Shown here one piece after another: positions 1-32,000 of a stretch of 32,000 nt of DNA (within the stretch, counting starts at the first letter, position 1; each line of letters begins with the position of its first letter). The notes beneath the pieces were generated by a model that worked only from the letters and a program-made list of their open reading frames with translations, did no database searches and was not told the origin of the DNA. The DNA comes from Candidatus Saccharimonas sp. (GTDB taxonomy: Bacteria > Patescibacteriota > Saccharimonadia > Saccharimonadales > Saccharimonadaceae). The DNA lies in contig CP076101.2 in assembly GCA_015256915.3 (NCBI GenBank), positions 240,001 to 272,000 on the forward strand, written 5' to 3'. A program made the position numbers and the translations under genes.

Positions 1-12
1 TTTTCGAAAATA

Positions 13-21
13 TGCTAAAAT
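13..21 (+). promoter_or_regulatory. Extended -10 promoter (TGcTAAAAT) for the 28..516 ORF
   Basis: TG at 13-14 and TAAAAT at 16-21. The ATG at 28 follows after only 6 nt with no Shine-Dalgarno, which implies a leaderless mRNA. Confidence 0.45.
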
Positions 22-27
22 ATCTTT

Positions 28-516
28 ATGAAAAATCACGCTTATTCTGATAAAAATCTTGAAGAATTTTTGCAAAAACATTTTGGTGTTAATTTTGGAA
101 TTGAAGAAGTTATTTTGCGTAATCTTTCGGTTGGATATTCAGCCGAAGCTACAATTTTCAAAAGCAAAAAAGGTCGTGTTTATGCTTTTATTTCGCTTGA
201 AGCTCGTGCAACTTTGGGCGATATTCAATATATTCTTTCAAAAATGAACTTAAAACCAGCTTTTTTCTTTCCGCCAAGCGGTTTCGAAAACTATTTTTAT
301 GACCGTGCTAAGGTGCAATTCTTAGAAGTATTTCCGGGGCGCCACGATGTAAAAGATGAAGAGCTGCGATATTACAAAAAACGCGTGCTTTATAACCCCG
401 CCCTTGTTGAAATTTCTGAAATTCGCGATGGTGAAATTCGCTGTTTTAATGCTGATTCTATTGGTTCGTGGCGAACAGCTCAAAGGTATTCGTACAAAAA
501 AATTTTAATGAAATAA
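28..516 (+). CDS. Hypothetical protein, 162 aa, no family recognised
   Basis: Complete ATG..TAA ORF with ordinary composition. No diagnostic motif seen. Confidence 0.6.
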   Translation: MKNHAYSDKNLEEFLQKHFGVNFGIEEVILRNLSVGYSAEATIFKSKKGRVYAFISLEARATLGDIQYILSKMNLKPAFFFPPSGFENYFYDRAKVQFLEVFPGRHDVKDEELRYYKKRVLYNPALVEISEIRDGEIRCFNADSIGSWRTAQRYSYKKILMK

Positions 517-556
517 ATTAAAATTGTGGAAAACTAAAAAATCCTCAAAAAAATGC

Positions 557-585
557 TTGCAAAATTATTATGCTTATGTTTTAAT
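557..585 (+). promoter_or_regulatory. Sigma70-type promoter of pilin gene 1 (TTGCAA-N17-TTTAAT with upstream TG)
   Basis: TTGCAA at 557-562, a 17-nt spacer, TGtTTTAAT at 577-585, then a leader of about 65 nt with AGGTGG before the ATG at 656. Confidence 0.45.
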
Positions 586-804
586 GGTTGCATACGGACA
601 GACCGTAAATAAAAATAACAATAATAATCGTTCATTAGAAAGGTGGATTTTCAGTATGAACTCAATTAATAAAAATAATAAAAAAGGTTTCACAATCATC
701 GAAGTTGTGCTTGTGCTTGCCATTGCCGGACTTATCTTCTTGATGGTATTCCTAGCGCTACCTGCTCTACAACGAAGCCAACGAGATACGCAACGAAAGA
801 ATGA
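571..804. repeat. Left arm of a 234-bp inverted repeat (pilin promoter -10, leader and codons 1-50)
   Basis: The reverse complement of 1684..1917 matches 571..804 except at 3 clustered positions (597, 599, 602). Checked base by base. Confidence 0.9.
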
Positions 805-1126
805 TGCTTCACGATTGCGCGCAGCAGTAACAGACTACACTTCAAACAACCGAGGAAAATTGCCTTGGGATGGAGCAGCTCCAAAGCCTGATTTTATTAG
901 TAAATATATCACAACAAATAATACAACAACATTTAATGATCCTTCAACAAACTCTCAATATACAATTGCAACTGCTACTGGAGCTACAGATGCTCCAACT
1001 GCACTTGGACAAATGAAGGTTTCCAACAACGCTAAATGTGGTACAGACGGAGCTATCGTAGCTGGTAATGGAATCGCTGTTTCTGTAAAAACTGAAAATG
1101 GCGTTGCAAACTGCGTTGAAGGTTAG
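656..1126 (+). CDS. Type IV pilin-like protein (prepilin N-terminal cleavage/methylation motif)
   Basis: MNSINKNNKKG|FTIIEVVLVLAIAGL gives G-1, F+1 and E+5 followed by a hydrophobic helix. A C-terminal Cys...Cys pair (CGTDG...NCVEG) forms a D-region-like loop. The ATG at 656 was chosen because AGGTGG lies upstream and the paralogue 1308..1832 starts at the identical codon. Confidence 0.85.
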   Translation: MNSINKNNKKGFTIIEVVLVLAIAGLIFLMVFLALPALQRSQRDTQRKNDASRLRAAVTDYTSNNRGKLPWDGAAPKPDFISKYITTNNTTTFNDPSTNSQYTIATATGATDAPTALGQMKVSNNAKCGTDGAIVAGNGIAVSVKTENGVANCVEG

Positions 1127-1149
1127 TATTTAATCTATAAAACTTAATT

Positions 1150-1180
1150 AAATAACTCTCTTCGGGGAGTTATTTAATTT
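1150..1180 (+). terminator. Rho-independent terminator after pilin gene 1
   Basis: aaataactctc-ttcg-gggagttattt is an 11-bp stem with one G.U pair, followed by a T-rich tract. Confidence 0.6.
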
Positions 1181-1256
1181 TGCGAAAGTATTCTATTGGC
1201 TTAATAGTAAGTTTGTTTTAGCACTATTGGATGCTGAGAAGTATTTTACACCACAA

Positions 1257-1294
1257 TAAAAAAACGGCTTCCTTAACGAAAAGCTGTTTTTTTT
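1257..1294. terminator. Hairpin with flanking A and T runs between the convergent pilin genes
   Basis: acggctt...aagctgt stem, A-run on the left and T8 on the right. The pairing contains a G.U on the plus strand that becomes an A.C mismatch on the minus strand. Confidence 0.4.
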
Positions 1295-1307
1295 ATTAAG
1301 ATTATAT

Positions 1308-1832
1308 CTAGTTATTTACGCAGTAGGATCCACCAGCTTCTAGAATTATTCGAAGGGCTACTTTACCATTGCTTCCTTCTTCTATTCTTACTCCATTTGG
1401 CTGTGATGGATCACATATTCCATTTGCTGACCATTCAATAGCTATAACTTCTGCATAGTCATCATATTCCATTTTTTGTGGAGTTCTGTCGAACACTGCA
1501 TAGTTTCGTCCGCTTGGATCCTTCATCTCCTCGCCATCTTTGAATAAATAATTTTTTATAAATCCTGTTGCACCACTATCTTTATTTGGGAAATCTCCTA
1601 AAGTTCTTTCTCCGTGATTAGATGGTAACTTTCCTTTATTAGCGGCTCTATATTCATTTACTGCTGCTAGTATTTTACTTAGGTCATTCTTTCGTTGCGT
1701 ATCTCGTTGGCTTCGTTGTAGAGCAGGTAGCGCTAGGAATACCATCAAGAAGATAAGTCCGGCAATGGCAAGCACAAGCACAACTTCGATGATTGTGAAA
1801 CCTTTTTTATTATTTTTATTAATTGAGTTCAT
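1308..1832 (-). CDS. Type IV pilin-like protein, paralogue of 656..1126
   Basis: The first 50 aa are identical to pilin 1, including KKG|FTIIEV. The C-terminal domain is unrelated and carries a Cys...Cys pair (CDPSQ...YCVNN). Confidence 0.85.
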   Translation of the reverse strand: MNSINKNNKKGFTIIEVVLVLAIAGLIFLMVFLALPALQRSQRDTQRKNDLSKILAAVNEYRAANKGKLPSNHGERTLGDFPNKDSGATGFIKNYLFKDGEEMKDPSGRNYAVFDRTPQKMEYDDYAEVIAIEWSANGICDPSQPNGVRIEEGSNGKVALRIILEAGGSYCVNN

Positions 1833-1917
1833 ACTGAAAATCCACCTTTCTAATGAACGATTATTATTGTTATTTTTATTTACGGCCTATACGTATGCAA
1901 CCATTAAAACATAAGCA
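1684..1917. repeat. Right arm of the 234-bp inverted repeat
   Basis: See 571..804. 231 of 234 positions are identical in inverted orientation. Confidence 0.9.
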
Positions 1918-1931
1918 AGATAAAAAATCAA
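1903..1931 (-). promoter_or_regulatory. Promoter of pilin gene 2 (TTGATT-N17-TTTAAT)
   Basis: The -10 and TG lie inside the repeat. The -35 TTGATT (plus-strand aatcaa, 1926-1931) lies just outside it. Confidence 0.4.
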
Positions 1932-1945
1932 TATCTTTAAATATT

Positions 1946-3265
1946 TTATTGATTTTTAATTTCTAGAATAATTAAGTTTTCAATATGTGGCGTTCGTGGA
2001 AAGAAATTATAGCCACGGGCATAAATTATCTTATATTTTTTACTCAGAATTGCTATATCGCGTGCTTGCGTTGTTGGGTTGCAGCTCAAATAAATCACTC
2101 TTTCTGGTTCTGTCTCAAGAATCTTTTCACAAACTTCACGGTTCATTCCAGCTCGTGGTGGATCAACAATTAAATTTGCTCCTTTTTTAATGAAGTCTAA
2201 AGCTTTTTCACTTGGTGAAAAGATGGCTTTTGCAGTTTTTTCTCGCCCAAGCTTTGTGATATTTCTTTGCATTTCTTTGACTGCTGGTTCGTTAATTTCA
2301 ACTAAAGTTAAATCGCCCGCACCAATTGTGAGACCAATTGAGCCTACGCCAGAGTATAAATCAACTGTTGGTTTTGAAATATCGATGAATTTCTTCATAT
2401 CGCGCAAAGCCTGTTCATAAACTGGTAAGTTTATCTGGAAAAAGCTCTCAGTTGCATAATTAAAATTCACGCCAAGAACTGAATCCTGTAAATTTTCTTG
2501 GTTTTGGCTTTGAATCTTTTTAGTTATTACGCTGGCTGGCGATTTTGGGTTTGAAAAAATAATCTCAAAATTTTTAAATCCAAGGCTAGTTATTTCTTCT
2601 TTCGAAAATAGCTTAAACCTCTCATCTTTTACATAAAGTTGGGCTGAAATTTCACCTTTTTGGTTCGCGCGAATCAATAAAGTCTTCAAATCTCGACTTG
2701 CAGTTTTTCTATCTCGTAAAATTGCAAGCACTTTTTGGCCTGCTTGGTTAATTTCTGATGTAGCTAAACTTGTACCAAAAACTGGGATTTTTCCTTTTCC
2801 TCCACGCTTAAAAAATGCTAAACTTGGCTCGCCATCATTTTCATTTTCTTCAGATTTTTCCCACCAAAATGAAAACTCCACTTTATTACGATATTCAAAA
2901 ATTTTACCATCAGAATAAAAATCTTCTTGGTTTTTGAGTTCAATTTTTTCTTGGTGAAAGCTTTCAAAAATTAGTTCTTGTTTGATTTTTTGTTCGAAAT
3001 CGAAGTTAAAAATCTGCCATGGGCTGGTTGAAAGAAAACTCTCCTTATCTTTCGGCTCAATTCTCTCGGGCGAATTTTCGAAAATTTCAACCGCAAAACC
3101 CTCTATAAAACTCGATTTACTTTTTGTAATTTGAATTTTTGCGGTTTCATTTGGTAAGACTCCCCACGCAAAGATTTTTTTTCCATTTTTAAGCGTACCT
3201 AAGGCTTGCCCGCCAGGTGTAATTTTATCAAATTTAGCTATTTCGAACTTAATTTTCCGTGCCAT
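1946..3265 (-). CDS. RumA/RlmD (TrmA)-family SAM-dependent RNA (uracil-5)-methyltransferase
   Basis: TRAM-like N-terminus, DLYSGVGSIGL (SAM motif I), DPPRAGM, and YLSCNPTTQARD with the catalytic Cys. Confidence 0.8.
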   Translation of the reverse strand: MARKIKFEIAKFDKITPGGQALGTLKNGKKIFAWGVLPNETAKIQITKSKSSFIEGFAVEIFENSPERIEPKDKESFLSTSPWQIFNFDFEQKIKQELIFESFHQEKIELKNQEDFYSDGKIFEYRNKVEFSFWWEKSEENENDGEPSLAFFKRGGKGKIPVFGTSLATSEINQAGQKVLAILRDRKTASRDLKTLLIRANQKGEISAQLYVKDERFKLFSKEEITSLGFKNFEIIFSNPKSPASVITKKIQSQNQENLQDSVLGVNFNYATESFFQINLPVYEQALRDMKKFIDISKPTVDLYSGVGSIGLTIGAGDLTLVEINEPAVKEMQRNITKLGREKTAKAIFSPSEKALDFIKKGANLIVDPPRAGMNREVCEKILETEPERVIYLSCNPTTQARDIAILSKKYKIIYARGYNFFPRTPHIENLIILEIKNQ

Positions 3266-3267
3266 AA

Positions 3268-4008
3268 TTATTCTATTTTATCAGAATTTTGCCAAAAACG
3301 CCATATCTCTAACCACTCTTCACCCTTCAATTCGCTTGGCTTTTTAGTTTTAAATTTTGGTTGGCAATTTTTTTTATAAAATTCTGGCACGGCAAACATT
3401 TTTTCAATAAAATCATTAAAAATTGGCTGTTCTTCTTTCGAAATTAGTGGAGTTTCTCGCCGTTTCATTTCGAAAAATACGGTTTCAACGGCTGGTGGTG
3501 GTGTAAAATCAGATTTTTGAAGAGGTTTTTTAATTTTACTTTCAAAAAACGGAAATGTTTTTACACCAAGCGCAGAAGTGAAATTTTTATCGCTCACAAT
3601 TAGTTTGCGGGTGAATTGTTTTTGTAAAATTAAATAAATGCTTTTTGGTGAATTTTGAGCAACTGTAAGCTTTTGGATAATCGGCGAACTTAAATGGAAA
3701 GGAATGTTTGCACAAACTTTGTAATTTTTTGGTAATTTCGAAAGATTGAAGTGCAAAAAATCTGCACATAAAACTTCAACATTCTCTAAATTTTTAGTGT
3801 TATTTTGAAGTTTTTTGAAAGTTCCGCGGTCAAATTCAATTGCTAAAACTTGTGCAGATTTTTTGCTAAGAGCATAAGTAAAAACACCACTTCCAGCACC
3901 TATGTCTAGCGTAAAATCTCGCTTTCGAATATTGCTGTGCCCAACAAGCATTAGTGCAATTCGTGGCGAACGCAAGAAATTTTGCGAAATACGGTGTTTT
4001 CGTGCCAT
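3268..4008 (-). CDS. rRNA adenine N6-methyltransferase family protein (Erm/KsgA family, Erm-like in length)
   Basis: SQNFL near the N-terminus, DIGAGSGVFT glycine loop and ANIPF catalytic motif, in 246 aa. The start abuts the permease stop with zero spacer, and the stop lies 2 nt from the RumA start. Confidence 0.7.
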   Translation of the reverse strand: MARKHRISQNFLRSPRIALMLVGHSNIRKRDFTLDIGAGSGVFTYALSKKSAQVLAIEFDRGTFKKLQNNTKNLENVEVLCADFLHFNLSKLPKNYKVCANIPFHLSSPIIQKLTVAQNSPKSIYLILQKQFTRKLIVSDKNFTSALGVKTFPFFESKIKKPLQKSDFTPPPAVETVFFEMKRRETPLISKEEQPIFNDFIEKMFAVPEFYKKNCQPKFKTKKPSELKGEEWLEIWRFWQNSDKIE

Positions 4009-5292
4009 CTATTCGTATCTCAAAGCTTCGATTGGGTCTTTTTTGCTGGCGCTTCGTGCTGGCAAAGCTCCGGCCAAAAATGCTACAACCGCAATAATCA
4101 AAGTTATAGTTATGTTATTTTTGATGGTGAACTTTGTTAAATTAAATCCTTCAAGCCCTTTCAAGAAATCTTTTGAGGCAAAACTATTTAAAGCATCTCC
4201 CGCTAAAGATGCGAGTATAATTCCTAAAATTGAACCAATTAAACCAATCAGAATTGCTTCAATACTGAAAAGTTGGAAAATCTTTCGGTTTGAAAGCCCC
4301 ATTGCTTTCATTAAACCAATTTCGCGAGTCCGTTCACGCACGCTCATGTAAAGTGTATTAATGATTCCGAAGCTAGCCGCAAGAAGTGCAATAGCTCCAA
4401 AAACAATCAAAGATCCAGTAATTCCATTTACAACATTCATGATAGTTTCGACTTGATCTTTAGCTGTGTTTGCTGAATAGCCCGCTTTTTTAGCGTCTTC
4501 CTTGATTTGGTTTAGTTTATCTTCAGTTATTTTTCCTTCAATTTGAGCTAGAGCAGAAATACTTTTTTCTTTAGACTCTTTTGGCAGGCTTCTTGTTTGA
4601 AAGTCATAAATTTCATTAAAGGCTGGTTCGTTAATTGTCACCATTGCTGATTGAATTAAGCTCTTAGCTGTTACGCCTGAAATTTTTTGAGTAAAGGCTT
4701 TAGTCTCGCCAGTCAAAGAATCTGAAACTTGAAAGGTTACTTTTTCACCAATCGCAGCTTGGGCATTTTTAAAGCCTAGAGGTTCAAGATAATCCTGAGA
4801 AATTGTTACCTCGTCTTTATTTTTTGGTTTACCCCCAGCTAGGAAATCAAAGTCAAATTTTTGTCCTTCGACTTCTACTATAACAGATGTGATTGTAAGT
4901 TTCTTACTGTCTTTGTATTGAATATAATCTGGTGTTGCCATTTTATAGAAGCGGGCATTTTTAACATTTAAAATTTTGTTAATCTTTTCAAGATCTTTAG
5001 AATTCAAGGTTTGTTGTGTATACCGTGAATCGGGTTTTTTCGAATCACCTTCTTTATATTCTTGAGGTCCAAAAGCTACGCCATTATCCTGCTTCGGCTT
5101 AAAATAAATTATAGAGTCGTCACCAAAAACCGAAAGCTGTTTTTGGATATAATCATTCACGCCGATATTCACGGCAGAAGTTAATGCTATGGTAAAAGAG
5201 CCGATACAAACCGCGATAATCGTCAAGAAAGTTCGGCCTTTATTCCGCCATAAATTTGATGCTGAGGTTTTGACCATATCTAAAAATTTCAT
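4009..5292 (-). CDS. ABC transporter permease, MacB/FtsX type
   Basis: N-terminal TM (FLTIIAVCIGSFTIA), a large extracytoplasmic domain and a C-terminal FtsX-like 3-TM module. The ATG at 5292 overlaps the upstream TAA by 1 nt (TAATG), so the track's upstream extension is rejected. Confidence 0.8.
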   Translation of the reverse strand: MKFLDMVKTSASNLWRNKGRTFLTIIAVCIGSFTIALTSAVNIGVNDYIQKQLSVFGDDSIIYFKPKQDNGVAFGPQEYKEGDSKKPDSRYTQQTLNSKDLEKINKILNVKNARFYKMATPDYIQYKDSKKLTITSVIVEVEGQKFDFDFLAGGKPKNKDEVTISQDYLEPLGFKNAQAAIGEKVTFQVSDSLTGETKAFTQKISGVTAKSLIQSAMVTINEPAFNEIYDFQTRSLPKESKEKSISALAQIEGKITEDKLNQIKEDAKKAGYSANTAKDQVETIMNVVNGITGSLIVFGAIALLAASFGIINTLYMSVRERTREIGLMKAMGLSNRKIFQLFSIEAILIGLIGSILGIILASLAGDALNSFASKDFLKGLEGFNLTKFTIKNNITITLIIAVVAFLAGALPARSASKKDPIEALRYE

Positions 5293-5984
5293 TATTTTTC
5301 TCCTTTTGAAACAATTCGTCCGTCTTGAATTCGAATCTGGTGGTCGCATTTTGCCGCCAAAGATTCATCATGCGTTACAATAATTAATGTAATTCCATTT
5401 TCCTTATTTAAACCAAAAAGTAAATCCTCAATTTTTTTGCTTGTTTTTGAGTCGAGATTTCCTGTTGGTTCATCGGCGAAAATAATTTCTGGTGAATTTG
5501 CAATTGCGCGAGCCACGCAGACACGTTGTTTTTGACCACCAGAAAGATTAGAAGCTTTATTTTTAGCTTTGTCGGTTAGCTCAACAGATTCGAGAGCTTT
5601 TAGAGCAATTTCTTTGCGCTTTCTTGAACCAACTCCGGCAATTTTAAGCGGTAGAATCACATTTTGTAAAACCGTGTCTTTTGGATTCATGAAGAATTGT
5701 TGAAAAACAAAGCCAAAAGTTTGGTTTCGAAGTTTATTCAATTCGCGTTTTTTCATTTTAGCAATATTTTGGCCATTAATTAAAATTTCACCCTCATTTG
5801 GTTTGTCGAGCGCTGCTAAAAGGTGCATAAGTGTCGATTTTCCGCTACCAGATTTACCAATAATTGCAACACTTTCACCTTTTTGGATGCTAAAAGAAAC
5901 GCCATTTAGTGCTTTAAAATATGTATTGCCGTCGCGATAAACTTTGACGAGATTCTTAACTTCTATTAAATTACTTTTGTTCAT
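5292..5984 (-). CDS. ABC transporter ATP-binding protein (MacB/LolD-like)
   Basis: Walker A GKSGSGKST, signature LSGGQKQR, Walker B IIFADEPT. AGGAAAGGA Shine-Dalgarno upstream. Confidence 0.9.
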   Translation of the reverse strand: MNKSNLIEVKNLVKVYRDGNTYFKALNGVSFSIQKGESVAIIGKSGSGKSTLMHLLAALDKPNEGEILINGQNIAKMKKRELNKLRNQTFGFVFQQFFMNPKDTVLQNVILPLKIAGVGSRKRKEIALKALESVELTDKAKNKASNLSGGQKQRVCVARAIANSPEIIFADEPTGNLDSKTSKKIEDLLFGLNKENGITLIIVTHDESLAAKCDHQIRIQDGRIVSKGEK

Positions 5985-6041
5985 TAAATTCCTTTCCTGT
6001 AACTATTTAATTCTACCAATCATAATCTTCGCTGTCAAATT

Positions 6042-8834
6042 CTAATGCTCAATTTTAAGATTATTCGTATTTTGAGTTTCTCGAGTTTGCGGTTTTAAAT
6101 TTCGCGAACGCGGTTTGCGGCGTTTTTTTACTTGCGGAATTTCAATTCCTTTTTCAGCAAAAGCTTTCGAAAGATCCTTAAGGCCTAAACTTGGTTCTTT
6201 TTGTTCAGCAGAATTTGGACTGATCTTTCTTGGATCGATCGGTGTTTTCGAAAAATCAATTTTTTTTGCTTCAAACATTGGTTGAATTGGTGTAAAATTT
6301 TGTGGTTTTGCTGTTGGTTTTATGTTCTGGGATTTTTGGTTCGAAATTCCTTGATTTTTAACTGGCGCAAAAACATTTTCCGCGACCTTTTTCGAAAATT
6401 CTACCCCATTTCGTTCCGCCCAAGCCTTTGTCATTAGTTCTTTTGGTGGCACTAGAATATCGCGGATGCGTTGTTCGATGACGGCTCGTGGCGTACTATA
6501 ATTTCGGCGCGTATTTTCAATAATCTTCGCGCTCAAATCATTAAAAGGTTTTGGCAAAGTTAGAGTTGTCGCACTAAATGGTGTTGATTTTTCGCCGTTG
6601 ATAATCATCGTCATTACAAAATGGCGGTTATTTAAGCTCATTAAATCTGAAGCATCGAATTGTGGCTTAAACTGCTCGGCCAAAACTGGAGCGTCTTCAA
6701 CCGAAACACGGAACGAAATGATTGATCCAACATTTCCAAAAACCGCATTTTTAACGCTGTCGGTCATTTGTGAAACATATTGATTAGCAACGGTTAAAGT
6801 TAAGCCGTATTTTCGAATTTCTGAAAGAATTACGGCAAAAGAATCGGTAGCAAAGTTTTGAAATTCATCAACATAAAGATGAAACGGTCGGCGATCTTCA
6901 AGCCGTTCAATATCTGCGCGCGATTGGGCGGCAAGCTGAATTTTTGTCACTAAGAAAGAACCAAGTACCGAGGCGTTATCTTCACCAATCAAGCCTTTCG
7001 AAAGATTTACAACCAAGATTTTGCCTTCATCCATAATCTCGCGAATATTAAAGGTCGATTTTGGCTGACCAATGATATTTCGAATAATTGGGTTTGCTGT
7101 GAAAGCCCCAACCTTATTTAAAATTGGTGCAATAGCTTCATTCACCTGTTTTTCACCCCATTGACCAAATTCCTTTTTCCAGAATTGAAGTACGGAGTCA
7201 TCTTTACAATAAGTTAAAGTCTCTTTTCGAAAATCGCCATCTGTTAGCATTCTTGAAATATCAAGCATTGTAGTTTCTGGGCGATCAAGAAGTGCCAGAA
7301 GTGTAAAACGCAAGATATATTCAAGGCGAGGACCCCAAGAATCACCAAACATACGCTTCAAAACACCGATAACCTCGGAAGAAATGTTTGATTTTCGACT
7401 CGGATCAGTTACTTCGAGCGGATTGAAGCCAAGTGGAAATTCTGTGTCGGCAGGATTAAAGTAAATTACATCATTAAGACGATGCTCAGGAATGAATCGC
7501 ATGTTGTTTTGCGCAAAATCGCCGTGTGGGTCGATAATTGCATATCCTTCCCCATGAAAAATATCCGAAAGTGCCAAAAGCTCAAGCGATCCAGATTTAC
7601 CGGTTCCTGTTTGACCAATAATATAAAGGTGTCGCGAACGGTCGCGGCGAAGCATTCCAAATTGGTGGTTAATTCCGCGAAAGTTTGTTAAACCAAAAGC
7701 TGAAATATTTTCATCATGTGCGCGGTCGCCAGTAATTATTGGTAATTTCGAAGGCGGTTCGGCAGTTTTGCTTGAAGCCCAAACAATGTTTGGAGTTTCC
7801 ACGTTTGTGTGCGGTAAATGCCAAATGCTGGCGAGCTCTTGAATATTTAAAATAAAGCCGTCATCAAAGAATATTCGCGATTGAAAATCTCGAATTTTAT
7901 CTTTATCGAGTGAAGAATTCGAAGCCTTAAAACCATTTAAATTTGTACTATTAAACTGTTTGAAAGTTCCAGTTAGAGCTTGAATTTGAAGCCGTGCAGT
8001 ATCTTCATCTTCCCCTAAATATGCCAAACGAATTTTAACTTGATAACCAAGTTTTGTGGCCTTTTCTTCAGCTTTCGAAATACGAGTTTTATCGCGGTCA
8101 GACGGTTCTTTTTTAGCATTTTCTGAACCCTCTGGTGGTGTCCAAAGCGCTTCTAGAATTCGCAAAATATATTTCCAATCAATTTTGAAAGCTTTTTTAC
8201 CAGACTTAACTTTCTTCACCCATTCATCTGATTTTTTATGCCAATCATCTGCAACAGGTCGTGCTAAAACTTGAATCCAAAGTTGATCATTTGTTCCGTC
8301 TAATTTTGCGAGTGTTCCAGTAATTCCCGCAAGTGGATCAACTTCGAAACCGTCAAAAGTTTTAATTGGCAAGGCTTCGTTTTCAATCAAGTCGATTTCA
8401 GTTGAATAAATTACGTGTTTATTTTCGAGATTCTCTGCGTAATCTTCTTTTGCTTCATAAATTTGAACTGTTGGATATTGTGAATAAATCTGCCCTTCCA
8501 CAAAACTTTGTAAAGTTCTCGGCATCCAAACATAAAACCGAATTGCGCCATTAACAGATACAATTTCAAAACTTAAATGTTCCTGAACGCCATTATTATT
8601 TTTAAGCTCGGTTGGGTCTCGCAAAATTCCGTGCAAACTGGCAAGGAGTTGCTCGGCGGCAAGCTCAGATTTATCATTAGTTTTTGGAATTTCCAACGCT
8701 AAAAGAACGCTGTCGGTATTCATTACGGTTAATTTATCGATTTTTTTATAATTTTGCCAAGTTAGAAAAGCTAAAATCGCCACGATTGTTAGCCAAACTA
8801 AAGGGTTAAATAAGATTGAAAAAAATGCCGTCAT
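6042..8834 (-). CDS. VirD4/TraG/TraD-like (FtsK-HerA superfamily) membrane-anchored ATPase
   Basis: N-terminal TM segment, Walker A GQTGTGKSG, Walker B-like HLYVDEFQNF, and a RKYGLTLTVANQY block typical of coupling-protein C-terminal domains. The start at 8834 is supported by the promoter at 8844..8872. Confidence 0.6.
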   Translation of the reverse strand: MTAFFSILFNPLVWLTIVAILAFLTWQNYKKIDKLTVMNTDSVLLALEIPKTNDKSELAAEQLLASLHGILRDPTELKNNNGVQEHLSFEIVSVNGAIRFYVWMPRTLQSFVEGQIYSQYPTVQIYEAKEDYAENLENKHVIYSTEIDLIENEALPIKTFDGFEVDPLAGITGTLAKLDGTNDQLWIQVLARPVADDWHKKSDEWVKKVKSGKKAFKIDWKYILRILEALWTPPEGSENAKKEPSDRDKTRISKAEEKATKLGYQVKIRLAYLGEDEDTARLQIQALTGTFKQFNSTNLNGFKASNSSLDKDKIRDFQSRIFFDDGFILNIQELASIWHLPHTNVETPNIVWASSKTAEPPSKLPIITGDRAHDENISAFGLTNFRGINHQFGMLRRDRSRHLYIIGQTGTGKSGSLELLALSDIFHGEGYAIIDPHGDFAQNNMRFIPEHRLNDVIYFNPADTEFPLGFNPLEVTDPSRKSNISSEVIGVLKRMFGDSWGPRLEYILRFTLLALLDRPETTMLDISRMLTDGDFRKETLTYCKDDSVLQFWKKEFGQWGEKQVNEAIAPILNKVGAFTANPIIRNIIGQPKSTFNIREIMDEGKILVVNLSKGLIGEDNASVLGSFLVTKIQLAAQSRADIERLEDRRPFHLYVDEFQNFATDSFAVILSEIRKYGLTLTVANQYVSQMTDSVKNAVFGNVGSIISFRVSVEDAPVLAEQFKPQFDASDLMSLNNRHFVMTMIINGEKSTPFSATTLTLPKPFNDLSAKIIENTRRNYSTPRAVIEQRIRDILVPPKELMTKAWAERNGVEFSKKVAENVFAPVKNQGISNQKSQNIKPTAKPQNFTPIQPMFEAKKIDFSKTPIDPRKISPNSAEQKEPSLGLKDLSKAFAEKGIEIPQVKKRRKPRSRNLKPQTRETQNTNNLKIEH

Positions 8835-8843
8835 AGTGTTTAA

Positions 8844-8872
8844 ATAATAGCATAAAACTGCAAAAAAATCAA
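8844..8872 (-). promoter_or_regulatory. Promoter TTGATT-N17-TGcTATTAT, 9 nt upstream of the ATG at 8834
   Basis: Read on the minus strand. No Shine-Dalgarno lies between the -10 and the ATG. Confidence 0.45.
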
Positions 8873-8940
8873 GATAGTGGTTATGCTTTTTGGTTTTTCG
8901 AAAATAAAATCCGCCCAAATTTTTGAGCGAATTTTAGTTT

Positions 8941-9999: not shown

Positions 10000-10096
10000 A
10001 ATTTCCTTGATTAAAATTAATACTTTATAAAAACCAAGTATTATTTTTCAATAACACTTGAGTATTGTCAATACCATTTATCTCTTCTTTATTTAT

Positions 10097-10105
10097 ATTA
10101 TACCA
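10097..10105 (-). promoter_or_regulatory. Extended -10 (TGgTATAAT) upstream of 8941..9999
   Basis: The minus strand reads tgtggtataat. A leader of about 90 nt follows, with AAGGA before the ATG. Confidence 0.4.
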
Positions 10106-10111
10106 CAAAAT

Positions 10112-10166
10112 TGTAAAAAACAACAAAAAATGACATAAAAATTTATTTTTTAAAATTTTATGTCAT
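10112..10166 (-). terminator. Rho-independent terminator of topA
   Basis: atgacataaaa / ttttatgtcat is an 11-bp stem, followed on the minus strand by tttttgttgtttttt. Confidence 0.6.
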
Positions 10167-10198
10167 TATGCTTGTGTTTATAGTTGAAATATTAAATG

Positions 10199-23307: not shown

Positions 23308-23349
23308 CTTCCTCCTAATAAAATAGTTGTATTTGTCAATGATTACTCT

Positions 23350-23378
23350 ATTGTATAAAATATTGTTGTAAAAGTCAA
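23350..23378 (-). promoter_or_regulatory. Promoter of the YhgE/Pip gene (TTGACT-N17-TACAAT)
   Basis: Read on the minus strand. The -35 lies inside the palindrome 23360..23384. AGGAGG Shine-Dalgarno before the ATG. Confidence 0.5.
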
Positions 23379-23384
23379 CAATAT
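23360..23384. promoter_or_regulatory. Perfect 9-bp-arm palindrome ATATTGTTG-N7-CAACAATAT, candidate MarR operator
   Basis: It sits in the 93-bp divergent spacer, overlaps the yhgE -35 and lies just upstream of the marR -10. Confidence 0.5.
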
Positions 23385-23385
23385 T

Positions 23386-23394
23386 TGGTATACT
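23386..23394 (+). promoter_or_regulatory. Extended -10 (TGgTATACT), 6 nt from the marR ATG
   Basis: tggtatact-tatttt-ATG with no Shine-Dalgarno. Confidence 0.45.
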
Positions 23395-23400
23395 TATTTT

Positions 23401-23826
23401 ATGGAAGAAAAGATTCTTGATTTATTGCAAAAAATTAATACAATTTATCGCTCGGCACAAAAATATGCAACACGCGAGCTTTCTAAAAATGATATTTCGG
23501 CTATTGAGGCTGCAATTTTAACCAAAATTTATAATTCTTCTGCTCCGCAAGATGAAATCTCTAAAGAAATTGGTGTTGATAAGGCCTATATTTCGCGAGT
23601 TTTAGTTAAAATGGAAGAGAAAAAATTAATTTTAAAGAAAAACTCACAGAAAGATAAGCGAATTCGTGAAATTGAAATTACAAAACTAGGTAAAGAAAAG
23701 CTAAACATTCGGCAGCAAATTCTAGTTAAATGGTGTGAAGAAACCTTTGGTGATATTTCTTTAAAAGAACTGAATCTATTAACCGAAGCGATTGAGATTA
23801 TCTCAAATAAGGCAAATGAAAAGTGA
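23401..23826 (+). CDS. MarR family transcriptional regulator
   Basis: 141 aa with a winged-HTH core (QDEISKEIGVDKAYISRVLVKMEEKKLILKKNSQKDKR). Confidence 0.8.
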   Translation: MEEKILDLLQKINTIYRSAQKYATRELSKNDISAIEAAILTKIYNSSAPQDEISKEIGVDKAYISRVLVKMEEKKLILKKNSQKDKRIREIEITKLGKEKLNIRQQILVKWCEETFGDISLKELNLLTEAIEIISNKANEK

Positions 23827-23863
23827 CCCTAAAATACAATAGTTTTTGTTTTGAAAACTATAA

Positions 23864-23892
23864 TTGACTTTTTTGGTTGAATTTGGTAAAAT
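23864..23892 (+). promoter_or_regulatory. tRNA promoter TTGACT-N17-TGgTAAAAT
   Basis: The -10 hexamer ends 9 nt before the first base of the mature tRNA. Confidence 0.55.
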
Positions 23893-23901
23893 TATAACAT
23901 T

Positions 23902-23976
23902 GGCCTCATCGTCTAACGGTTAGGACACAAGGTTCTCATCCTTGCAATCGGGGTTCGATTCCCCGTGAGGTCACCA
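23902..23976 (+). tRNA. tRNA-Glu (anticodon CUC) with encoded CCA
   Basis: Hand-folded cloverleaf. Acceptor GGCCTCA/TGAGGTC with one G.U; D arm GTCT-AACGGTTA-GGAC; anticodon arm CAAGG-TTCTCAT-CCTTG; T arm CGGGG-TTCGATT-CCCCG; then A and CCA. Confidence 0.9.
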
Positions 23977-23987
23977 GAACGAGAATT

Positions 23988-24019
23988 AACTGCTTCATGT
24001 AAACGAAGCAGTTTTTTTT
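23988..24019 (+). terminator. Rho-independent terminator after the tRNA
   Basis: aactgcttc-atgtaaac-gaagcagtt followed by T8. Confidence 0.75.
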
Positions 24020-24231
24020 AGATCCCCGCATTCGTACAATTCTGCAAGGATATTTTTGTTGTTCCAATTGAGATGATTACTCTACGATTTAAAAAGATAG
24101 GAAGGAATAATGGATGCATATAAAGCAGAAAATGGAATTTTAAAAATAATAATATAAAGAACGATATAGATTTTATCGACGGTAAATGTTATTATAAAGG
24201 TAAAGAATTTGAGATAAAATAAGGAGTGATA

Positions 24232-24585
24232 ATGAATTTTAATGAATACCAAAATCAAGCTGTCCAAACAGATGTTGCACATGGCGCTACTACCAAATCT
24301 GCTCGCTACAATGGCTATATGGAAAAAGCTCTCGGGTTGGCTGGCGAAACTGGTGAAGTTTTAGAAATAATTAAGAAAATAATTCGAGACAAAGGCGGAG
24401 TTTTTGAAATTGCACAGGAAGACCGTGAGAAGCTTAGAAAAGAGCTTGGCGATGTTTTATGGTATCTTTCTGCCCTAGCCTTTTATAACGATATCAGGCT
24501 TGAAGATATCGCAAAAACTAATCTTGAAAAATTAGCTAGCCGACAACGGCGAGATAAGATTCATGGTAGTGGGGACGATCGATAA
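24232..24585 (+). CDS. MazG-like nucleotide pyrophosphohydrolase (small all-alpha NTP-PPase)
   Basis: LAGETGEVLEI and ELGDVLWYL metal-binding motifs. AAGGAG lies 6 nt before the ATG at 24232. Confidence 0.7.
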   Translation: MNFNEYQNQAVQTDVAHGATTKSARYNGYMEKALGLAGETGEVLEIIKKIIRDKGGVFEIAQEDREKLRKELGDVLWYLSALAFYNDIRLEDIAKTNLEKLASRQRRDKIHGSGDDR

Positions 24586-24607
24586 TAAATATGCAAACTA
24601 ACTATAA

Positions 24608-24643
24608 TATTCAAAATAACAACTTCGGGTGCTATTTTGAATA
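24608..24643. terminator. Perfect 11-bp hairpin between the MazG-like gene and the toxin remnant
   Basis: tattcaaaata-N14-tattttgaata. The stem is AT-only and lacks a clean T-run. Confidence 0.3.
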
Positions 24644-24654
24644 GTTAAGATTAA

Positions 24655-24914
24655 CTAGTACTTGTAGATTTCTAGTCTATAGTCAATAAAGGCAATATAA
24701 AACACGCTATTAGATTCGGAATATACCACTATTAACCTATAACTGGTGTCATAGAATCGCAAAATATCAACATGTTTAATATCATTACTAAAATATTCAT
24801 ACGGTGGTTTTTTCTTGAGTTGACTTACTAATATCTGTTAAATATCAATTGTTCTACGATCGGTTGACTATAAATCGCTATATGATATAGCACTCTATCC
24901 GCCAATTCTTCCAG
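24655..24914 (-). pseudogene. Frameshifted RelE/ParE-superfamily toxin remnant
   Basis: The minus-strand frame 24837..24655 reads QILVSQLKKKPPYEYFSNDIKHVDILRFYDTSYRLIVVYSESNSVFYIAFIDYRLEIYKY*. It has no start codon and is preceded by TAA. An N-terminal piece, (V)LYHIAIYSQPIVEQLIFNRY*, lies in another frame at 24914..24828. Only a tail of about 13 codons of a possible antitoxin remains upstream. Confidence 0.5.
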
Positions 24915-25050
24915 TTAGAGCTTTAGCCTCTTAATATTTTTTACCATCTCATCTAGTCAAAATTTTTTATGAACTTAACTGAAATAAAAAGCTTAATCAA
25001 TAGATTAAAAAATTATTTATCGATAATCTTAGTTAAGCTTTATATATTTT

Positions 25051-26028
25051 TTAGCCCAGAATTTTCCAGCAGCAATTAATTAATTCTTGCAAAGTTTCAT
25101 CATAATTCTCATAAATTCGAAAGCCTGCAGCATAAGCGTGACCGCCACCACCAAAATAGCCAGCGATATCGGCCGCAACTGGTGAATTCGTGCGAATTTT
25201 CCCTGTCAATTTACCATCTGGGTAGGTTTTTATAGCCACGCAAGCTTCTACACCTTCAACCATTCGCATTTCATCAATCACCAAAACACTTGGGTTATAC
25301 TTATCAGAGTATTCTTTAATCTCGCTCCATGGAATATGTACAACTGCTAATTTTCCATCTAAAAAATATTCAATTCGCTGAATTAGTTCTCCCTTATATT
25401 TTAAAATTTCAGGTGCTTTTTTCGAAAGTTCACGGCGATCCTCTTCAAGTTTGGCTGAATTTGCGCCAAGTTTTGTTAATTCGCCCGCAACTTCAAAAGT
25501 TCTGGCTGAAGTATTGCTCGTTGAAAGCCCAAGCGTGTCGCTAAAAATTGCTCCAAGTAAATTTTGTGCAGCGTTTTCATTAATTTTCCAGTGATTTGCT
25601 TTTGCAATTTCGAAAATTAATTCACCTGCTGAGCTAGCCTCTTCTAAAATTAATTCGTGTTTAAAAAACAAATCTGGTGTTGCATCGGTATGGTGATCAA
25701 TAACTAAAACTGGCGTTTTTTCAAGCAAGTTTTTATAAAGCGGGTCCTCAATTATTTTTGACAGTAGAATACTACTGGTTGTATCAACAATGATAAAAAG
25801 GTCAAATTTTTCATAAATTGAACTCTCCACTCTATCCCAGCCCTTAAAATATCGCAAATATTTAGGGATATCAACTGGACAGAAAAGTTTAACTTCTTTG
25901 CCTAACTTGCTTAAAATTTCTTCTAATCCTAAAGCTGACCCTAAACTATCGCCATCAGGGTTTTCAGCCTGAATAACGCAAATTTTTTCTGCATTTTCAA
26001 CTATTTTTTTTGTATTTTCGAAATTCAT
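25051..26028 (-). CDS. DHH family phosphoesterase (NrnA-like)
   Basis: DGDSLGS, VIDHHTD and GGGHAYAAG motifs. Confidence 0.8.
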   Translation of the reverse strand: MNFENTKKIVENAEKICVIQAENPDGDSLGSALGLEEILSKLGKEVKLFCPVDIPKYLRYFKGWDRVESSIYEKFDLFIIVDTTSSILLSKIIEDPLYKNLLEKTPVLVIDHHTDATPDLFFKHELILEEASSAGELIFEIAKANHWKINENAAQNLLGAIFSDTLGLSTSNTSARTFEVAGELTKLGANSAKLEEDRRELSKKAPEILKYKGELIQRIEYFLDGKLAVVHIPWSEIKEYSDKYNPSVLVIDEMRMVEGVEACVAIKTYPDGKLTGKIRTNSPVAADIAGYFGGGGHAYAAGFRIYENYDETLQELINCCWKILG

Positions 26029-26645: not shown

Positions 26646-26663
26646 TTTTCTCTTTCGAAAAGA

Positions 26664-29445: not shown

Positions 29446-29649
29446 GTGCAATATATTCTTAATAATTCTTTGTCCCTCCTTTATATACTATAAGAATTAT
29501 AAATATTGCACATGGTAACCTCTTTGACCGGCGAGCCCTTTGTTGAATTTTGGTGGGTTTTCAGCTTCGAATTTTTCGAGCCTTAGCGGGTGCGTCGAAG
29601 AGATAAAAAACCGTCTAAGCGATGCCCACCCGTGCTTAGGCGGTTTTTT
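29446..29649 (+). ncRNA. Candidate structured non-coding RNA of unclassified family
   Basis: A long AT hairpin (arms 29446-29454 / 29503-29511) is followed by a G+C-rich domain closed by a 9-bp helix (29520-29528 / 29594-29602) and an intrinsic terminator. Three G.U pairs would be A.C on the other strand, which favours the plus strand. Confidence 0.35.
29611..29649 (+). terminator. Strong intrinsic terminator
   Basis: ccgtctaagc-N13-gcttaggcgg is a 10-bp stem with one G.U, followed by T6. An A6 run lies upstream, so it could act in both directions. Confidence 0.7.
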
Positions 29650-29767
29650 ATGTTATAATATTAAAATATCTATTACTTTTGTCAATGTGCTTAAGGTTAA
29701 TAATTAACACACCTATTTTAACATAAGCGATTATATTTAACAAGTTTTCGAAAAAATAAATAAATTA

Positions 29768-29830: not shown

Positions 29831-30349
29831 TTAGAATGAAGCCTCTACCGCTGCCCAAGTGGTGTCGGTGTTGTCTTCTGGGATGATGATTGTGACCTGG
29901 TCGCCAACTTGAAGGCGGAAATAAGTCACGCTTGCAAGCAGAATTTTATATTCATTTCCACCCGCTTCAACGAAGAACGAACCATCGTGATTGATGAGCG
30001 TTCCAATAATTTGTTTTCGCGGAACCGGACCAATTTGCTTATAAATAAACCCACCATCTTCATTAATTGTAAGCTTCAGAATATCGCCCTCCACAAGCTT
30101 TGATTTCGAAGCATAATTCGCTGGAACTGGGTAATTTTTACCATCTGGACCAATCATAGTTTGACCATCGAAAACACCTTCAATAACTTTGCCATGAGGG
30201 CTTTCGATGATGGAATTACTTGGAGCTGTCACGGTGTTATCTTCACCGCTAATGCTTATTAGTAATTCTTTGGCTGCAGCAAGATTAGTTTCCGCTTCTT
30301 GAATCAAGCTTTTTAGCCGTTTTACTTGTTTTTCTGGTAATTCAGACAT
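29831..30349 (-). CDS. Hypothetical protein, 172 aa
   Basis: Complete ORF with an N-terminal coiled segment followed by a beta-rich region. No family recognised. Confidence 0.6.
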   Translation of the reverse strand: MSELPEKQVKRLKSLIQEAETNLAAAKELLISISGEDNTVTAPSNSIIESPHGKVIEGVFDGQTMIGPDGKNYPVPANYASKSKLVEGDILKLTINEDGGFIYKQIGPVPRKQIIGTLINHDGSFFVEAGGNEYKILLASVTYFRLQVGDQVTIIIPEDNTDTTWAAVEASF

Positions 30350-30548: not shown

Positions 30549-30575
30549 TTGACTTTTCAAGACAATAGTTATAAT
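30549..30575 (+). promoter_or_regulatory. Proximal promoter of pilin gene 3 (TTGACT-N15-TATAAT), 8 nt from the ATG
   Basis: The hexamers are consensus-like but the spacer is short (16 nt if ATTGAC is taken as the -35). No Shine-Dalgarno. Confidence 0.4.
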
Positions 30576-30583
30576 ATGAAAAT

Positions 30584-31096
30584 ATGAATAAGCATAAACT
30601 AAATAAAGGTTTTACGATCATTGAAGTCGTTTTGGTTCTTGCGATTGTGGGATTAATTTTTCTTGCTGTTTTTTTAGCTCTTCCCGCTCTTCAACGCAAT
30701 CAACGAGATACACAACGTAAAAACGATATGTCACGGTTTAAGGCCGCTTATCATCAATATCGCGCAAACAATAAAGGTTCAAAAATTGGCGGAGTATTCA
30801 ACGGTGAGTCTATGAGTAAACTTCCAAATTGGGATAATTTCATTAATGAATATCTTCGAAAAGGTAATGACACTTTTCGTGATCCTCTTGGTGAAGATTA
30901 TTTCGTTCAGGAGGGGTTGTGGGATTATGCTCGAGCTGGAGGGGTTGGAACAGGTGTTATTACTATTAAAGATGGCCATGTTTGCGACTATAGTTCTAAT
31001 AAGCCAATCAACCAAAGAATTGTTAGTGGAAATGGTCAAACTGCAAGGATTTGGCTTGAATCTGGTGAGGTTTATTGCTTAGATTTACTTAACTAA
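30584..31096 (+). CDS. Type IV pilin-like protein (third paralogue)
   Basis: MNKHKLNKG|FTIIEVVLVLAIVGLIFLAVFLALPALQRNQRDTQRKND, with a C-terminal Cys...Cys pair (VCDYS...YCLD). Confidence 0.85.
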   Translation: MNKHKLNKGFTIIEVVLVLAIVGLIFLAVFLALPALQRNQRDTQRKNDMSRFKAAYHQYRANNKGSKIGGVFNGESMSKLPNWDNFINEYLRKGNDTFRDPLGEDYFVQEGLWDYARAGGVGTGVITIKDGHVCDYSSNKPINQRIVSGNGQTARIWLESGEVYCLDLLN

Positions 31097-31116
31097 CATT
31101 TTCTTGAAGAATTAAT

Positions 31117-31138
31117 AAAACCCTCCAATGAGGGTTTT
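31117..31138. terminator. Bidirectional terminator
   Basis: aaaaccctc-caat-gagggtttt lies between convergent genes. Confidence 0.65.
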
Positions 31139-31141
31139 CGA

Positions 31142-31384
31142 TTAATAGGGTTTCCAATTATGTTTGTAGATTGTCAACGAATTGCCAATTATGTCGACCT
31201 CGTAGACTTCCCCCGCACTCTCAAAAAGAAAGTGCGTTTTATTTTTATTGGCTCCGATTCGGCAATATTCTTGGATGTAGGCACAGAGGTTTGGGGCTTC
31301 TCCTTTATCAAAGCTTCCTGAAGGGTTTTCTTTTGTTAGTTTTCTCAGCTCTTTTAAAGCTCTTCCGCTAATATTATAGCTCAT
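31142..31384 (-). CDS. Hypothetical small protein, 80 aa
   Basis: The start overlaps the upstream gene's 3' end by 11 nt (ATGAGCTATAA). No family recognised. Confidence 0.55.
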   Translation of the reverse strand: MSYNISGRALKELRKLTKENPSGSFDKGEAPNLCAYIQEYCRIGANKNKTHFLFESAGEVYEVDIIGNSLTIYKHNWKPY

Positions 31385-31706
31385 TTTCTTCCTCCTCCTC
31401 TATTTTTGTAACTTCAATTGTATTTTCTTCAAGAAATTCAACGCTAAATTTTCGATTTTTCGAATACTGAAAACTATCGAAAATATCAAAACCGGTAATT
31501 TTTTTCTTACCGAAAGATTTTCGAATTTGTGATAATTCTTCAAAAACTTCTTTTCGAATTGGATTTTTTTCGTCCTCAACTAAAACCGTTCCCGTGCGAT
31601 TTGACTCATTGATTGCGTTTAAGTCTTGCATAAGTTTATCGCTGTCGTCATCATAAAGAAGTTCATCGCCAGCAGAAGTACGAAAAACAAAATTATAAAA
31701 AGCCAT
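31374..31706 (-). CDS. Hypothetical acidic protein, 110 aa
   Basis: AGAGGA Shine-Dalgarno, its own promoter, and an acidic C-terminal EEEEENEL tail. Confidence 0.55.
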   Translation of the reverse strand: MAFYNFVFRTSAGDELLYDDDSDKLMQDLNAINESNRTGTVLVEDEKNPIRKEVFEELSQIRKSFGKKKITGFDIFDSFQYSKNRKFSVEFLEENTIEVTKIEEEEENEL

Positions 31707-31752
31707 AATTAATTCCTCTTTCTAATGTGCTACTCAAACGAGCGCTTTTAAT

Positions 31753-31781
31753 ATTATACAACTTTTTTAAAGAAAAATCAA
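31753..31781 (-). promoter_or_regulatory. Promoter TTGATT-N17-TATAAT of the small-gene pair
   Basis: Read on the minus strand, immediately after the terminator at 31784..31811. Confidence 0.5.
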
Positions 31782-31783
31782 GA

Positions 31784-31811
31784 CTAAAAAAATCCCCGCA
31801 AAATTGCGAGG
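31784..31811 (-). terminator. Terminator of the partial gene at the window edge
   Basis: The minus strand reads cctcgca-attt-tgcgggg followed by attttttt. Confidence 0.6.
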
Positions 31812-32000
31812 TTATGACGGCCAGAGTTTTTTGACTTCTGTGCTTTCGCCGCTGCGGCAAAAAATTTCGAAATTATAATCTTCATTCGAATCTTGTATAA
31901 TTTGATAGTAATACGCCATATCGTTGATGTCTTGCATTTCGAAAGTATCGAAAATTTCTTCCATCAGCACCATTTCGTTACTAAAAATTCTACCGCCAGC
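31812..32000 (-). CDS. 3' end of a hypothetical protein (partial, continues beyond the window)
   Basis: Open minus-strand frame from the window edge to the TAA at 31814..31812. It reads ...EEIFDTFEMQDINDMAYYYQIIQDSNEDYNFEIFCRSGESTEVKKLWPS*. It is absent from the ORF track because it has no start. Confidence 0.45.
   Translation of the reverse strand, partial: AGGRIFSNEMVLMEEIFDTFEMQDINDMAYYYQIIQDSNEDYNFEIFCRSGESTEVKKLWPS

Follow-up and report, generated by a model that had tools for sequence, protein, structure and literature searches.

An array of TTCGAA sites in a Saccharibacteria genome

The window analysed here, a 32,000-bp stretch of the Candidatus Saccharimonas sp. contig CP076101.2 (positions 240,001–272,000; GC content 35.6%), carries a dense array of the palindrome TTCGAA, which extends over positions 1–32000 and comprises 88 dispersed sites, 48 of them embedded in the full octamer TTTCGAAA. 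This number corresponds to ~1 site per 364 bp and exceeds the zero-order expectation of 10.8 by a factor of 8.2, in agreement with an earlier note on the same sequence, in which ~85–90 sites (~1 per 360 bp), ~10 expected copies and a roughly eight-fold excess had been reported. Expectations rose to 25.7 at first and 47.1 at third Markov order. TTCGAA, TTTCGA and TCGAAA were the top three hexamer outliers at orders 0, 1 and 3, and among the 64 six-base palindromes the over-representation of TTCGAA was far ahead of all others. Comparison with a maximal-order Markov model, for which the earlier note had regarded an observed/expected ratio (O/E) near 1 as speaking against the enrichment, yielded a value of 1.15 (88/76.4); this null is uninformative, because most TTCGA and TCGAA sub-words stem from the motif itself, and independent nulls all gave a large excess. 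The four-base palindromes ACGT, CATG and GATC were depleted as usual (18, 30 and 56 copies, respectively, vs 104 expected for each at order 0), showing that ordinary restriction avoidance coexists with the excess of TTCGAA, which is therefore treated differently. Six-base palindromes with zero copies in the window included GGTACC, GTGCAC, CACGTG and GCATGC.

The spacing of the sites was Poisson-like, with a mean of 367 bp and a coefficient of variation (CV) of 0.93, and the analysis of spacing in the window revealed no regular intervals, positional regularity or gene-level pattern. Two stretches had previously been singled out as lacking the motif, and both gaps exist. The first (284–1348, gap from 283 to 1349) contains a pilin gene together with one of the two arms of a 240-bp inverted repeat and is not significant. 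The second, the longest in the window with 2140 bp (22982–25115, gap from 22976 to 25116), spans genes for MarR, tRNA-Glu and MazG, and a gap of at least this length is expected with P = 0.19 under uniform placement. Meaningful motif-free islands and regular spacing are thus not supported, and the gaps lie within the range of chance.

Eight sites are located in intergenic DNA, six of them as full octamers. Copies of TTTCGAAA are found at 2–9, upstream of the open reading frame (ORF) 28–516, at 17470–17477, between the divergent genes 16432–17442 (−) and 17506–18642 (+), at 26653–26660, in the 18 nt that separate recR from ybaB, and at 29746–29753, between dprA and ORF 29831–30349. Two further copies (20113–20120 and 20153–20160) flank or overlap a terminator-like hairpin at 20128–20156. 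The remaining two intergenic sites are TTCGAA hexamers, positioned upstream of dprA (29566–29571) and in the loop of a terminator-like hairpin on the minus strand (18646–18692, with the hexamer at 18669–18674). The earlier note had assigned the sites at 17471, 18669, 20114, 20154 and 29747 to spacers and terminator loops. All five are indeed intergenic, but only the site at 18669 falls into a predicted terminator loop, whereas the site at 20154 overlaps the foot of a hairpin stem and those at 17471, 20114 and 29747 lie outside terminators. In total, two of the 88 sites were in contact with a terminator hairpin, one through the loop and the other through the foot of the stem, with the remaining 86 touching no terminator.

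The gene context of the array includes dprA (PF02481; 28479–29339, −), a competence and recombination-mediator gene, a gene for a type IV pilin-like protein that carries an N_methyl motif (KGFTIIEV...; 524–1126, +) and two more pilin-like genes at 1308–1832 (−) and 30584–31096 (+). The two divergent pilin genes at 524–1126 and 1308–1832 are associated with the 240-bp inverted repeat (565–804 and 1684–1923), whose arms are 98% complementary, separated by 879 nt, and span the upstream regions and the identical ~50-amino-acid N-termini of both genes. The region between the arms varies among strains, and the repeat may undergo inversion or gene conversion and thereby give rise to pilin variation.

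DNA-level enrichment of a dyad-symmetric octamer

Sites within genes of both orientations were distributed over all three reading frames (21, 19 and 35 sites). Frame 0 is exemplified by TTC-GAA (Phe-Glu) at 15434–15439 (+), inside the gene for an ABC-F ATPase (14111–15805), frame 1 by the octamer TTT-CGA-AAA (Phe-Arg-Lys) at 14291–14298 (+; hexamer at 14292), and frame 2 by the octamer cTT-TCG-AAa (Leu-Ser-Lys) at 14397–14404 (+; hexamer at 14398). These are the examples on which the earlier note had based its claim of frame independence; all three were correct, and the presence of sites in genes on both strands was confirmed. When synonymous codons were permuted within each gene, leaving the proteins and the per-gene codon usage unchanged, 26.0±4.3 TTCGAA sites (maximum 39 in 500 shuffles) were obtained in genes, compared to 76 observed, and the octamer reached 8.3±2.6 copies, compared to 39 observed. 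Codon choice followed the motif in each frame: Ser was encoded by TCG in 35 of 77 cases in the context xxT-Ser-AAx vs 76 of 544 elsewhere, Arg by CGA in 20 of 25 cases in the context xTT-Arg-Axx vs 118 of 379 elsewhere, and Phe-Glu was written TTC-GAA in 21 of 44 cases, whereas TTC accounts for 28% of Phe codons. True intergenic DNA (3,085 nt, 25% G+C), as defined after adding a 65-amino-acid ORF, a 116-amino-acid ORF running off the window end and the tRNA, contained its 8 TTCGAA sites where 0.95–1.6 were expected (P = 7e-6 to 3e-4). The enrichment is therefore a frame-independent DNA-level phenomenon that includes intergenic DNA and is no codon-pair effect, in line with the earlier note, which had found the sites unexplained by any single codon pair and had proposed the strand, frame and intergenic comparisons.

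The logo of the window sites showed T at position −1 in 77% and A at position +1 in 68% of cases, with background composition farther out. To delimit the enriched unit, the window was joined to its own flanks from strain loci with 97–99.97% identity, giving 51 kb of this genome. Relative to order-0 expectations, this sequence contained 73 copies of TTTCGAAA (1.8 expected, ~40-fold), 58 copies of TTCGAA with one T/A flank (7.6 expected) and 13 copies with neither flank (8.0 expected). The enriched unit is thus the octamer, with the bare hexamer at baseline, which refines the description of the motif as TTCGAA, often extended, while leaving the reported enrichment intact. In the enriched relatives described below, the octamer was over-represented 17- to 77-fold. 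One-base deviations from the octamer had an O/E of 8.6 at positions 1/8, 3.1 at positions 4/5, 2.8 at positions 2/7 and 1.5 at positions 3/6. The two half-sites acted synergistically, as TTCGAA occurred at 2.0 times the product N(TTCG)·N(CGAA)/N(CG) and the octamer at 3.8 times the analogous product, whereas both ratios were 0.4–1.0 in non-enriched relatives. This 2–3.8-fold synergy rules out a one-strand half-site context rule, in which TTCG would be favoured on each strand, and implies a putative dyad-symmetric, i.e. dimeric, reader of TTTCGAAA.

Clade distribution and turnover of the sites

Relatives were compared over ~22-kb loci anchored on topA, with the closer ones found by individual look-up of TopA homologues. 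High site numbers per ~22 kb were obtained for L096 (66 TTCGAA, 90% TopA identity), L094 (94, 86%) and L093, a Candidatus Nanogingivalis metagenome-assembled genome (72, 80%), and L095 (72% TopA identity) still contained 26 sites, with 10 octamers vs 0.6 expected. L097 (ERZ15185054, 70%) and L098 (ERZ28615051, 68%), by contrast, had 4 and 7 sites, respectively, and no enrichment was detected among the 80 further loci listed, which comprised ~20 Saccharibacteria at ≤65% TopA identity, used as negative controls, and otherwise mostly Bacteroidota. The density of TTCGAA was 0.25/kb in the two non-enriched sisters, which have equal G+C content, as opposed to 2.8–3.2/kb in enriched members. The comparison with related genomes that the earlier note had called for therefore places the motif at 72–90% TopA identity and its absence at 68–70%, and the trait arose inside a narrow lineage, roughly a genus in breadth, of Saccharibacteria that are associated with humans and include Ca. 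Nanogingivalis. Many near-identical strains of the window were present in human metagenome assemblies (VALL22 series of the European Nucleotide Archive); strain assemblies number in the hundreds, and a 162-amino-acid marker protein was present in 195 index blocks. Enriched members are represented by VALL22 scaffolds of 240 kb (ERZ28635535) and 397 kb (ERZ28635349) and by GCA_030530485.1, GCA_049294455.1 and GCA_030530825.1.

A scan of viral contigs for paired octamers returned 120 loci, none of them similar to Saccharibacteria ORFs, and was uninformative on phages of the clade. Two of these contigs contained dispersed copies of TTTCGAAA, namely 7 in 10.7 kb (L177, IMG/VR 3300029922_000055) and 5 in 5.5 kb (L159, IMG/VR 2938542164_000002), compared to an expectation of ~0.2–0.4; both are unrelated to Saccharibacteria and were chosen for an octamer pair, so that the excess is partly due to ascertainment.

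Retention of the window sites was counted at orthologous codon-aligned positions. It amounted to 84% in L010 (92% nucleotide identity), 62% in L096, 33% in L094 and 39% in L093, vs 62%, 36%, 21% and 19% for all hexamers, respectively. In the non-enriched sisters, 0–4% of the sites were retained, vs 11% for all hexamers. As retention is high inside the clade and 0–4% in the sisters, the sites were created within the clade. At 74–84% nucleotide identity, TTTCGAAA was also conserved above control palindromic octamers with 25% GC (0.58, 0.41 and 0.33 vs 0.26, 0.28 and 0.11).

In an alignment of eight strains (window 1–10,470), nearly all variable sites were exchanges between TTCGAA and TTTGAA or TTCAAA, with ~5–6 gains and ~10 losses by parsimony. 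Changes towards CG were 3–10 times commoner in the context TT__AA than in control contexts; in the comparison with L096, for instance, T|TCA|AA had changed to TCG 17 times out of 25, compared to 86 times out of 495 in the control (p = 9e-8). Losses were about as frequent as at other synonymous CpGs, so that the sites are not hypermutable. These pairwise substitution rates are unpolarised, and mutation bias and fixation bias are inseparable by them. The one-transition variants TTTGAA and TTCAAA occurred at 2.8/kb vs 1.9/kb in the sisters (1.3–1.5 times commoner; O/E of 0.9 at order 1). Compared to the outgroups, TTYRAA sites as a whole had doubled in number and the TTTYRAAA pool had grown 3–6-fold, which shows that recruitment extended to the flanks. 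Together, the turnover data point to a directional process rather than chance, in support of the earlier reading of the enrichment as the result of selection or a context-specific process.

The alignment of window 1–10470 with L007–L012 also revealed mosaicism. Strain L011 carries a block of L010-type alleles (alignment columns 3182–3233), and single alleles are common to the window and L010, although the latter is more distant (alignment column 4369). Such mosaic patterns indicate that co-circulating strains undergo homologous recombination.

Two side observations concern other features of the window. CTGGTG, the core of the E. coli Chi sequence GCTGGTGG, was found 18 times on the plus strand vs 6 times for its complement (2.4 expected at order 1), with sites, e.g. 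at 3492, 8132, 13040 and 15573, in genes of both orientations. As CTGGTG and TGGTGG are among the top k-mers of the non-enriched relative L098 as well, CTGGTG may represent a strand-skewed Chi-like word or one resembling the FtsK-orienting polar sequences (KOPS) in Saccharibacteria. Moreover, ribosomal protein L1 (20170–21252, 360 amino acids) has an acidic, Ala/Glu-rich N-terminal extension of ~130 amino acids, whereas bacterial L1 usually comprises ~230 amino acids.

Candidate explanations for the array

The closest analogue of TTTCGAAA is HIP1 (GCGATCGC), which together with the alternate HIPs forms the highly iterated palindromes (HIPs) known from cyanobacteria (Elhai 2015, PMC4390886; Xu et al. 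2018, PMC5861425). Like HIP1, TTTCGAAA is a perfect palindrome of 8 bp, built around a 6-bp core of the kind recognised in restriction and methylation, is over-represented tens-fold (~40-fold as measured in the 51 kb, compared to the genome-wide ~15-fold or more that is characteristic of HIPs) at ~1 site per 0.4–0.7 kb, is found in every reading frame as well as in non-coding DNA, and is lineage-specific. One-off variants of HIP1 deviate mostly at the first or last base (PMC4390886), in line with the peak at positions 1/8 described above, and for HIP1, conservation between genomes exceeds that of control palindromes (PMC5861425), as was observed for TTTCGAAA at 74–84% nucleotide identity but not at 92–97%. 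Unlike GC-rich HIP1, however, TTTCGAAA is AT-rich (25% GC), resides in an ultrasmall epibiont with a reduced genome (Saccharibacteria/Patescibacteria) instead of a cyanobacterium, is limited to a narrow, roughly genus-level clade instead of being phylum-wide, and had no cognate methyltransferase in the ~51 kb read. HIP1 proper was ruled out as the identity of the motif by its different sequence and by the Saccharibacterium host. Candidate mechanisms discussed for HIP1 include a methyltransferase-linked repair ratchet, a role in nucleoid structure, and a methylation-dependent boost of transformation or an uptake signal.

By analogy, and with moderate confidence, TTTCGAAA is interpreted as a HIP-type highly iterated palindrome whose frequency is driven by a clade-specific methyltransferase or recognition system of the TTCGAA type that would bias repair, recombination or uptake. 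The motif is maintained by a directional force, which raises the rate at which TTTTGAAA, TTTCAAAA and the flank variants turn into TTTCGAAA and leaves the rate of its loss about equal to that of other CpGs. The putative reader would be a dimeric, sequence-specific DNA enzyme acquired by the clade, the most plausible candidate being a methyltransferase, probably an orphan enzyme, with TTCGAA (AsuII/BstBI-type) or TCGA specificity. The modified site could then be favoured whenever DNA strands are compared or exchanged, either by methyl-directed repair acting as a ratchet, as in Elhai's HIP model, or by preferential uptake and recombination of tagged self DNA in natural transformation. Either route would represent a weak per-site bias which, acting genome-wide, might result in ~1 site per 360–700 bp. 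An enzyme of this type is favoured by the analogy to HIP1 and by the fact that TTCGAA ranks among the classical type II specificities (AsuII/BstBI), and an orphan methyltransferase is considered at least as likely as the DNA uptake sequence that the earlier note had called attractive.

Several observations weigh against this interpretation. No gene for a DNA methyltransferase, Vsr or a MutH-like protein was found in ~51 kb of the genome and ~22 kb per relative, except for unrelated MmeI-like and PabI-like systems in two relatives. At 92–97% identity, TTTCGAAA was conserved no more than control palindromes (0.67–0.80 vs 0.70–0.89), codon conservation inside vs outside the motif was mixed, and the conservation tests thus lend no support to a position-specific function of the sites. 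Furthermore, repair bias, uptake drive and selection on site density would all predict the observed substitution pattern and cannot be separated by sequence.

Regarding the enzymes encountered in this search, two RrnaAD-family (KsgA/Erm-like) methyltransferases are encoded in the genome, one at 3268–4008 of the window (246 amino acids) and one at 5673–6557 of L007. The 246-amino-acid copy is kept in all relatives examined, beside a TrmA/RlmD-like m5U methyltransferase, and is unlinked to the presence of the motif; its conservation in relatives without the motif rules it out as the agent. The PabI-family endonuclease of L094 is encoded together with a 381-amino-acid gene product without Pfam hit next to topA (6374–8258), and the MmeI-like type IIL enzyme of L093, split into two ORFs and followed by a helicase, likewise adjoins topA (12391–15208). 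The topA neighbourhood looks like a hotspot for defence islands.

The second route leads to a more specific and more tentative proposal, in which TTTCGAAA, probably methylated, would serve as a self-recognition tag for natural transformation in one oral Saccharibacteria clade. Saccharibacteria can be naturally transformed through ComEC (PMC10633639). In other bacteria, the methylated short palindrome RAATTY (CtsM) gates uptake in Campylobacter jejuni, and methylated HIP1 raises natural transformation >100-fold in Synechococcus PCC 7002. The uptake idea survives in this methylation-dependent form because competence exists in Saccharibacteria and methylated palindromes gate uptake in Campylobacter. 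As in these two systems, a short palindromic methyltransferase site could act as a self tag; in contrast to them, the evidence for TTTCGAAA is a strong genomic over-representation.

A classical DNA uptake sequence (DUS), by which a receptor such as a minor type IV pilin would bind unmodified TTTCGAAA and the motif would spread by uptake and recombination (molecular drive), appears unlikely. The earlier note had proposed it on the grounds of dprA and the three pilin-like genes, which are indeed present in the window but constitute circumstantial evidence. Relatives that lack the motif carry these competence and pilin genes beside the corresponding locus as well, so that the genes do not account for the motif. 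Like the Neisseria DUS and the uptake signal sequences (USS) of Pasteurellaceae, TTTCGAAA occurs in an organism with competence machinery, is clade-specific, is found in coding and non-coding DNA at a frequency of at least ~1 per kb (~1.4–2.8/kb) and seems to be driven at all eight positions, flanks included, as molecular drive would predict. The transformability of Saccharibacteria through ComEC (PMC10633639) and the mosaic strain blocks, such as that in L011, are likewise consistent with uptake and recombination. However, known DUS and USS have asymmetric cores of 9–12 bp, whereas TTTCGAAA is a perfect 8-bp palindrome typical of dimeric enzymes. Unlike the Neisseria DUS, which frequently forms inverted pairs as terminators, it is also unpaired, with 1–2 of the 88 sites touching a terminator hairpin, and the single Saccharibacteria species tested took up synthetic DNA.

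Another rival, considered improbable, is an array of binding sites for a clade-specific protein that is abundant and structures the nucleoid or chromosome; selection would then act on the density of the sites, in analogy to the proposal of Xu et al. for HIP1. The dyad symmetry of the motif, its conservation above control palindromes at moderate divergence and the occurrence of sites in intergenic and coding DNA alike would agree with such an array. Against it stand the Poisson-like spacing without any regularity, the lack of excess conservation at shallow divergence and the lack of a candidate protein, while the periodicity of 10–90 kb reported for HIP1 is beyond the scale of the window.

A pure mutation or repair bias without function, arising either from very-short-patch (VSP)-type correction of T:G to C:G at methylated TTCGAA or from a context-specific polymerase or deaminase bias, is regarded as distinctly improbable. 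In E. coli, very-short-patch repair by the Dcm/Vsr system is associated with an over-representation of CCWGG and an under-representation of CTWGG. The array resembles this signature in its CpG- or C-restoring transition bias at a palindrome, with turnover consisting mainly of exchanges between C and T at the central positions, and a bias of this kind would be consistent with the preponderance of CpG transitions among strain polymorphisms, the elevated rate of change towards CG and the absence of positional regularity or gene-level pattern. It differs from the signature, however, in that the deamination products TTTGAA and TTCAAA show no depletion of the kind seen for CTWGG in E. coli and are more frequent than in the outgroup, the drive extends to the flanks, and the effect is larger by an order of magnitude. 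A correction restricted to C/T cannot recruit flanks, as would be required by the growth of the octamer pool, and the synergy of the two halves contradicts a half-site context rule. Repair of the VSP type alone is therefore disfavoured.

A by-product of amino-acid or codon-pair usage, for which the abundance of the dipeptides Phe-Glu, Ser-Lys and Arg-Lys in this AT-rich proteome might speak, or of dispersed repeat copies such as repetitive extragenic palindromic (REP) elements or miniature inverted-repeat transposable elements (MITEs), is practically excluded by the synonymous and codon shuffles, the use of three frames, the enrichment of intergenic DNA, the absence of the motif from sister lineages with orthologous proteins and the flanking columns, which carry no information beyond ±1 and are at background composition outside the 8 bp.

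A full-text literature search retrieved no paper combining TTCGAA with Saccharibacteria, and the papers on TM7 methylation motifs in cultured strains concern other lineages. A function as self tag would make TTTCGAAA the first signal for uptake or recombination reported from the Candidate Phyla Radiation and an independent, AT-rich reinvention of the role now proposed for HIP1. HIP1 itself has been a puzzle for 30 years, studied in one phylum, to which TTTCGAAA would add a second, independent and compositionally opposite case. This case is set in tiny (<1 Mb) genomes and has a sharp onset between ~70% and ~72–80% TopA identity, so that comparing gene content on the two sides of this boundary should pinpoint the methyltransferase, reader or repair genes behind the motif; in cyanobacteria, the near universality of HIP1 makes such a comparison much more difficult. 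Motif density could serve as a simple marker for binning contigs of the clade in metagenomics and, if the motif acts as a self tag in methylated form, the addition or methylation of TTTCGAAA could open the way to genetic work on this TM7 group, which has barely been cultivated.

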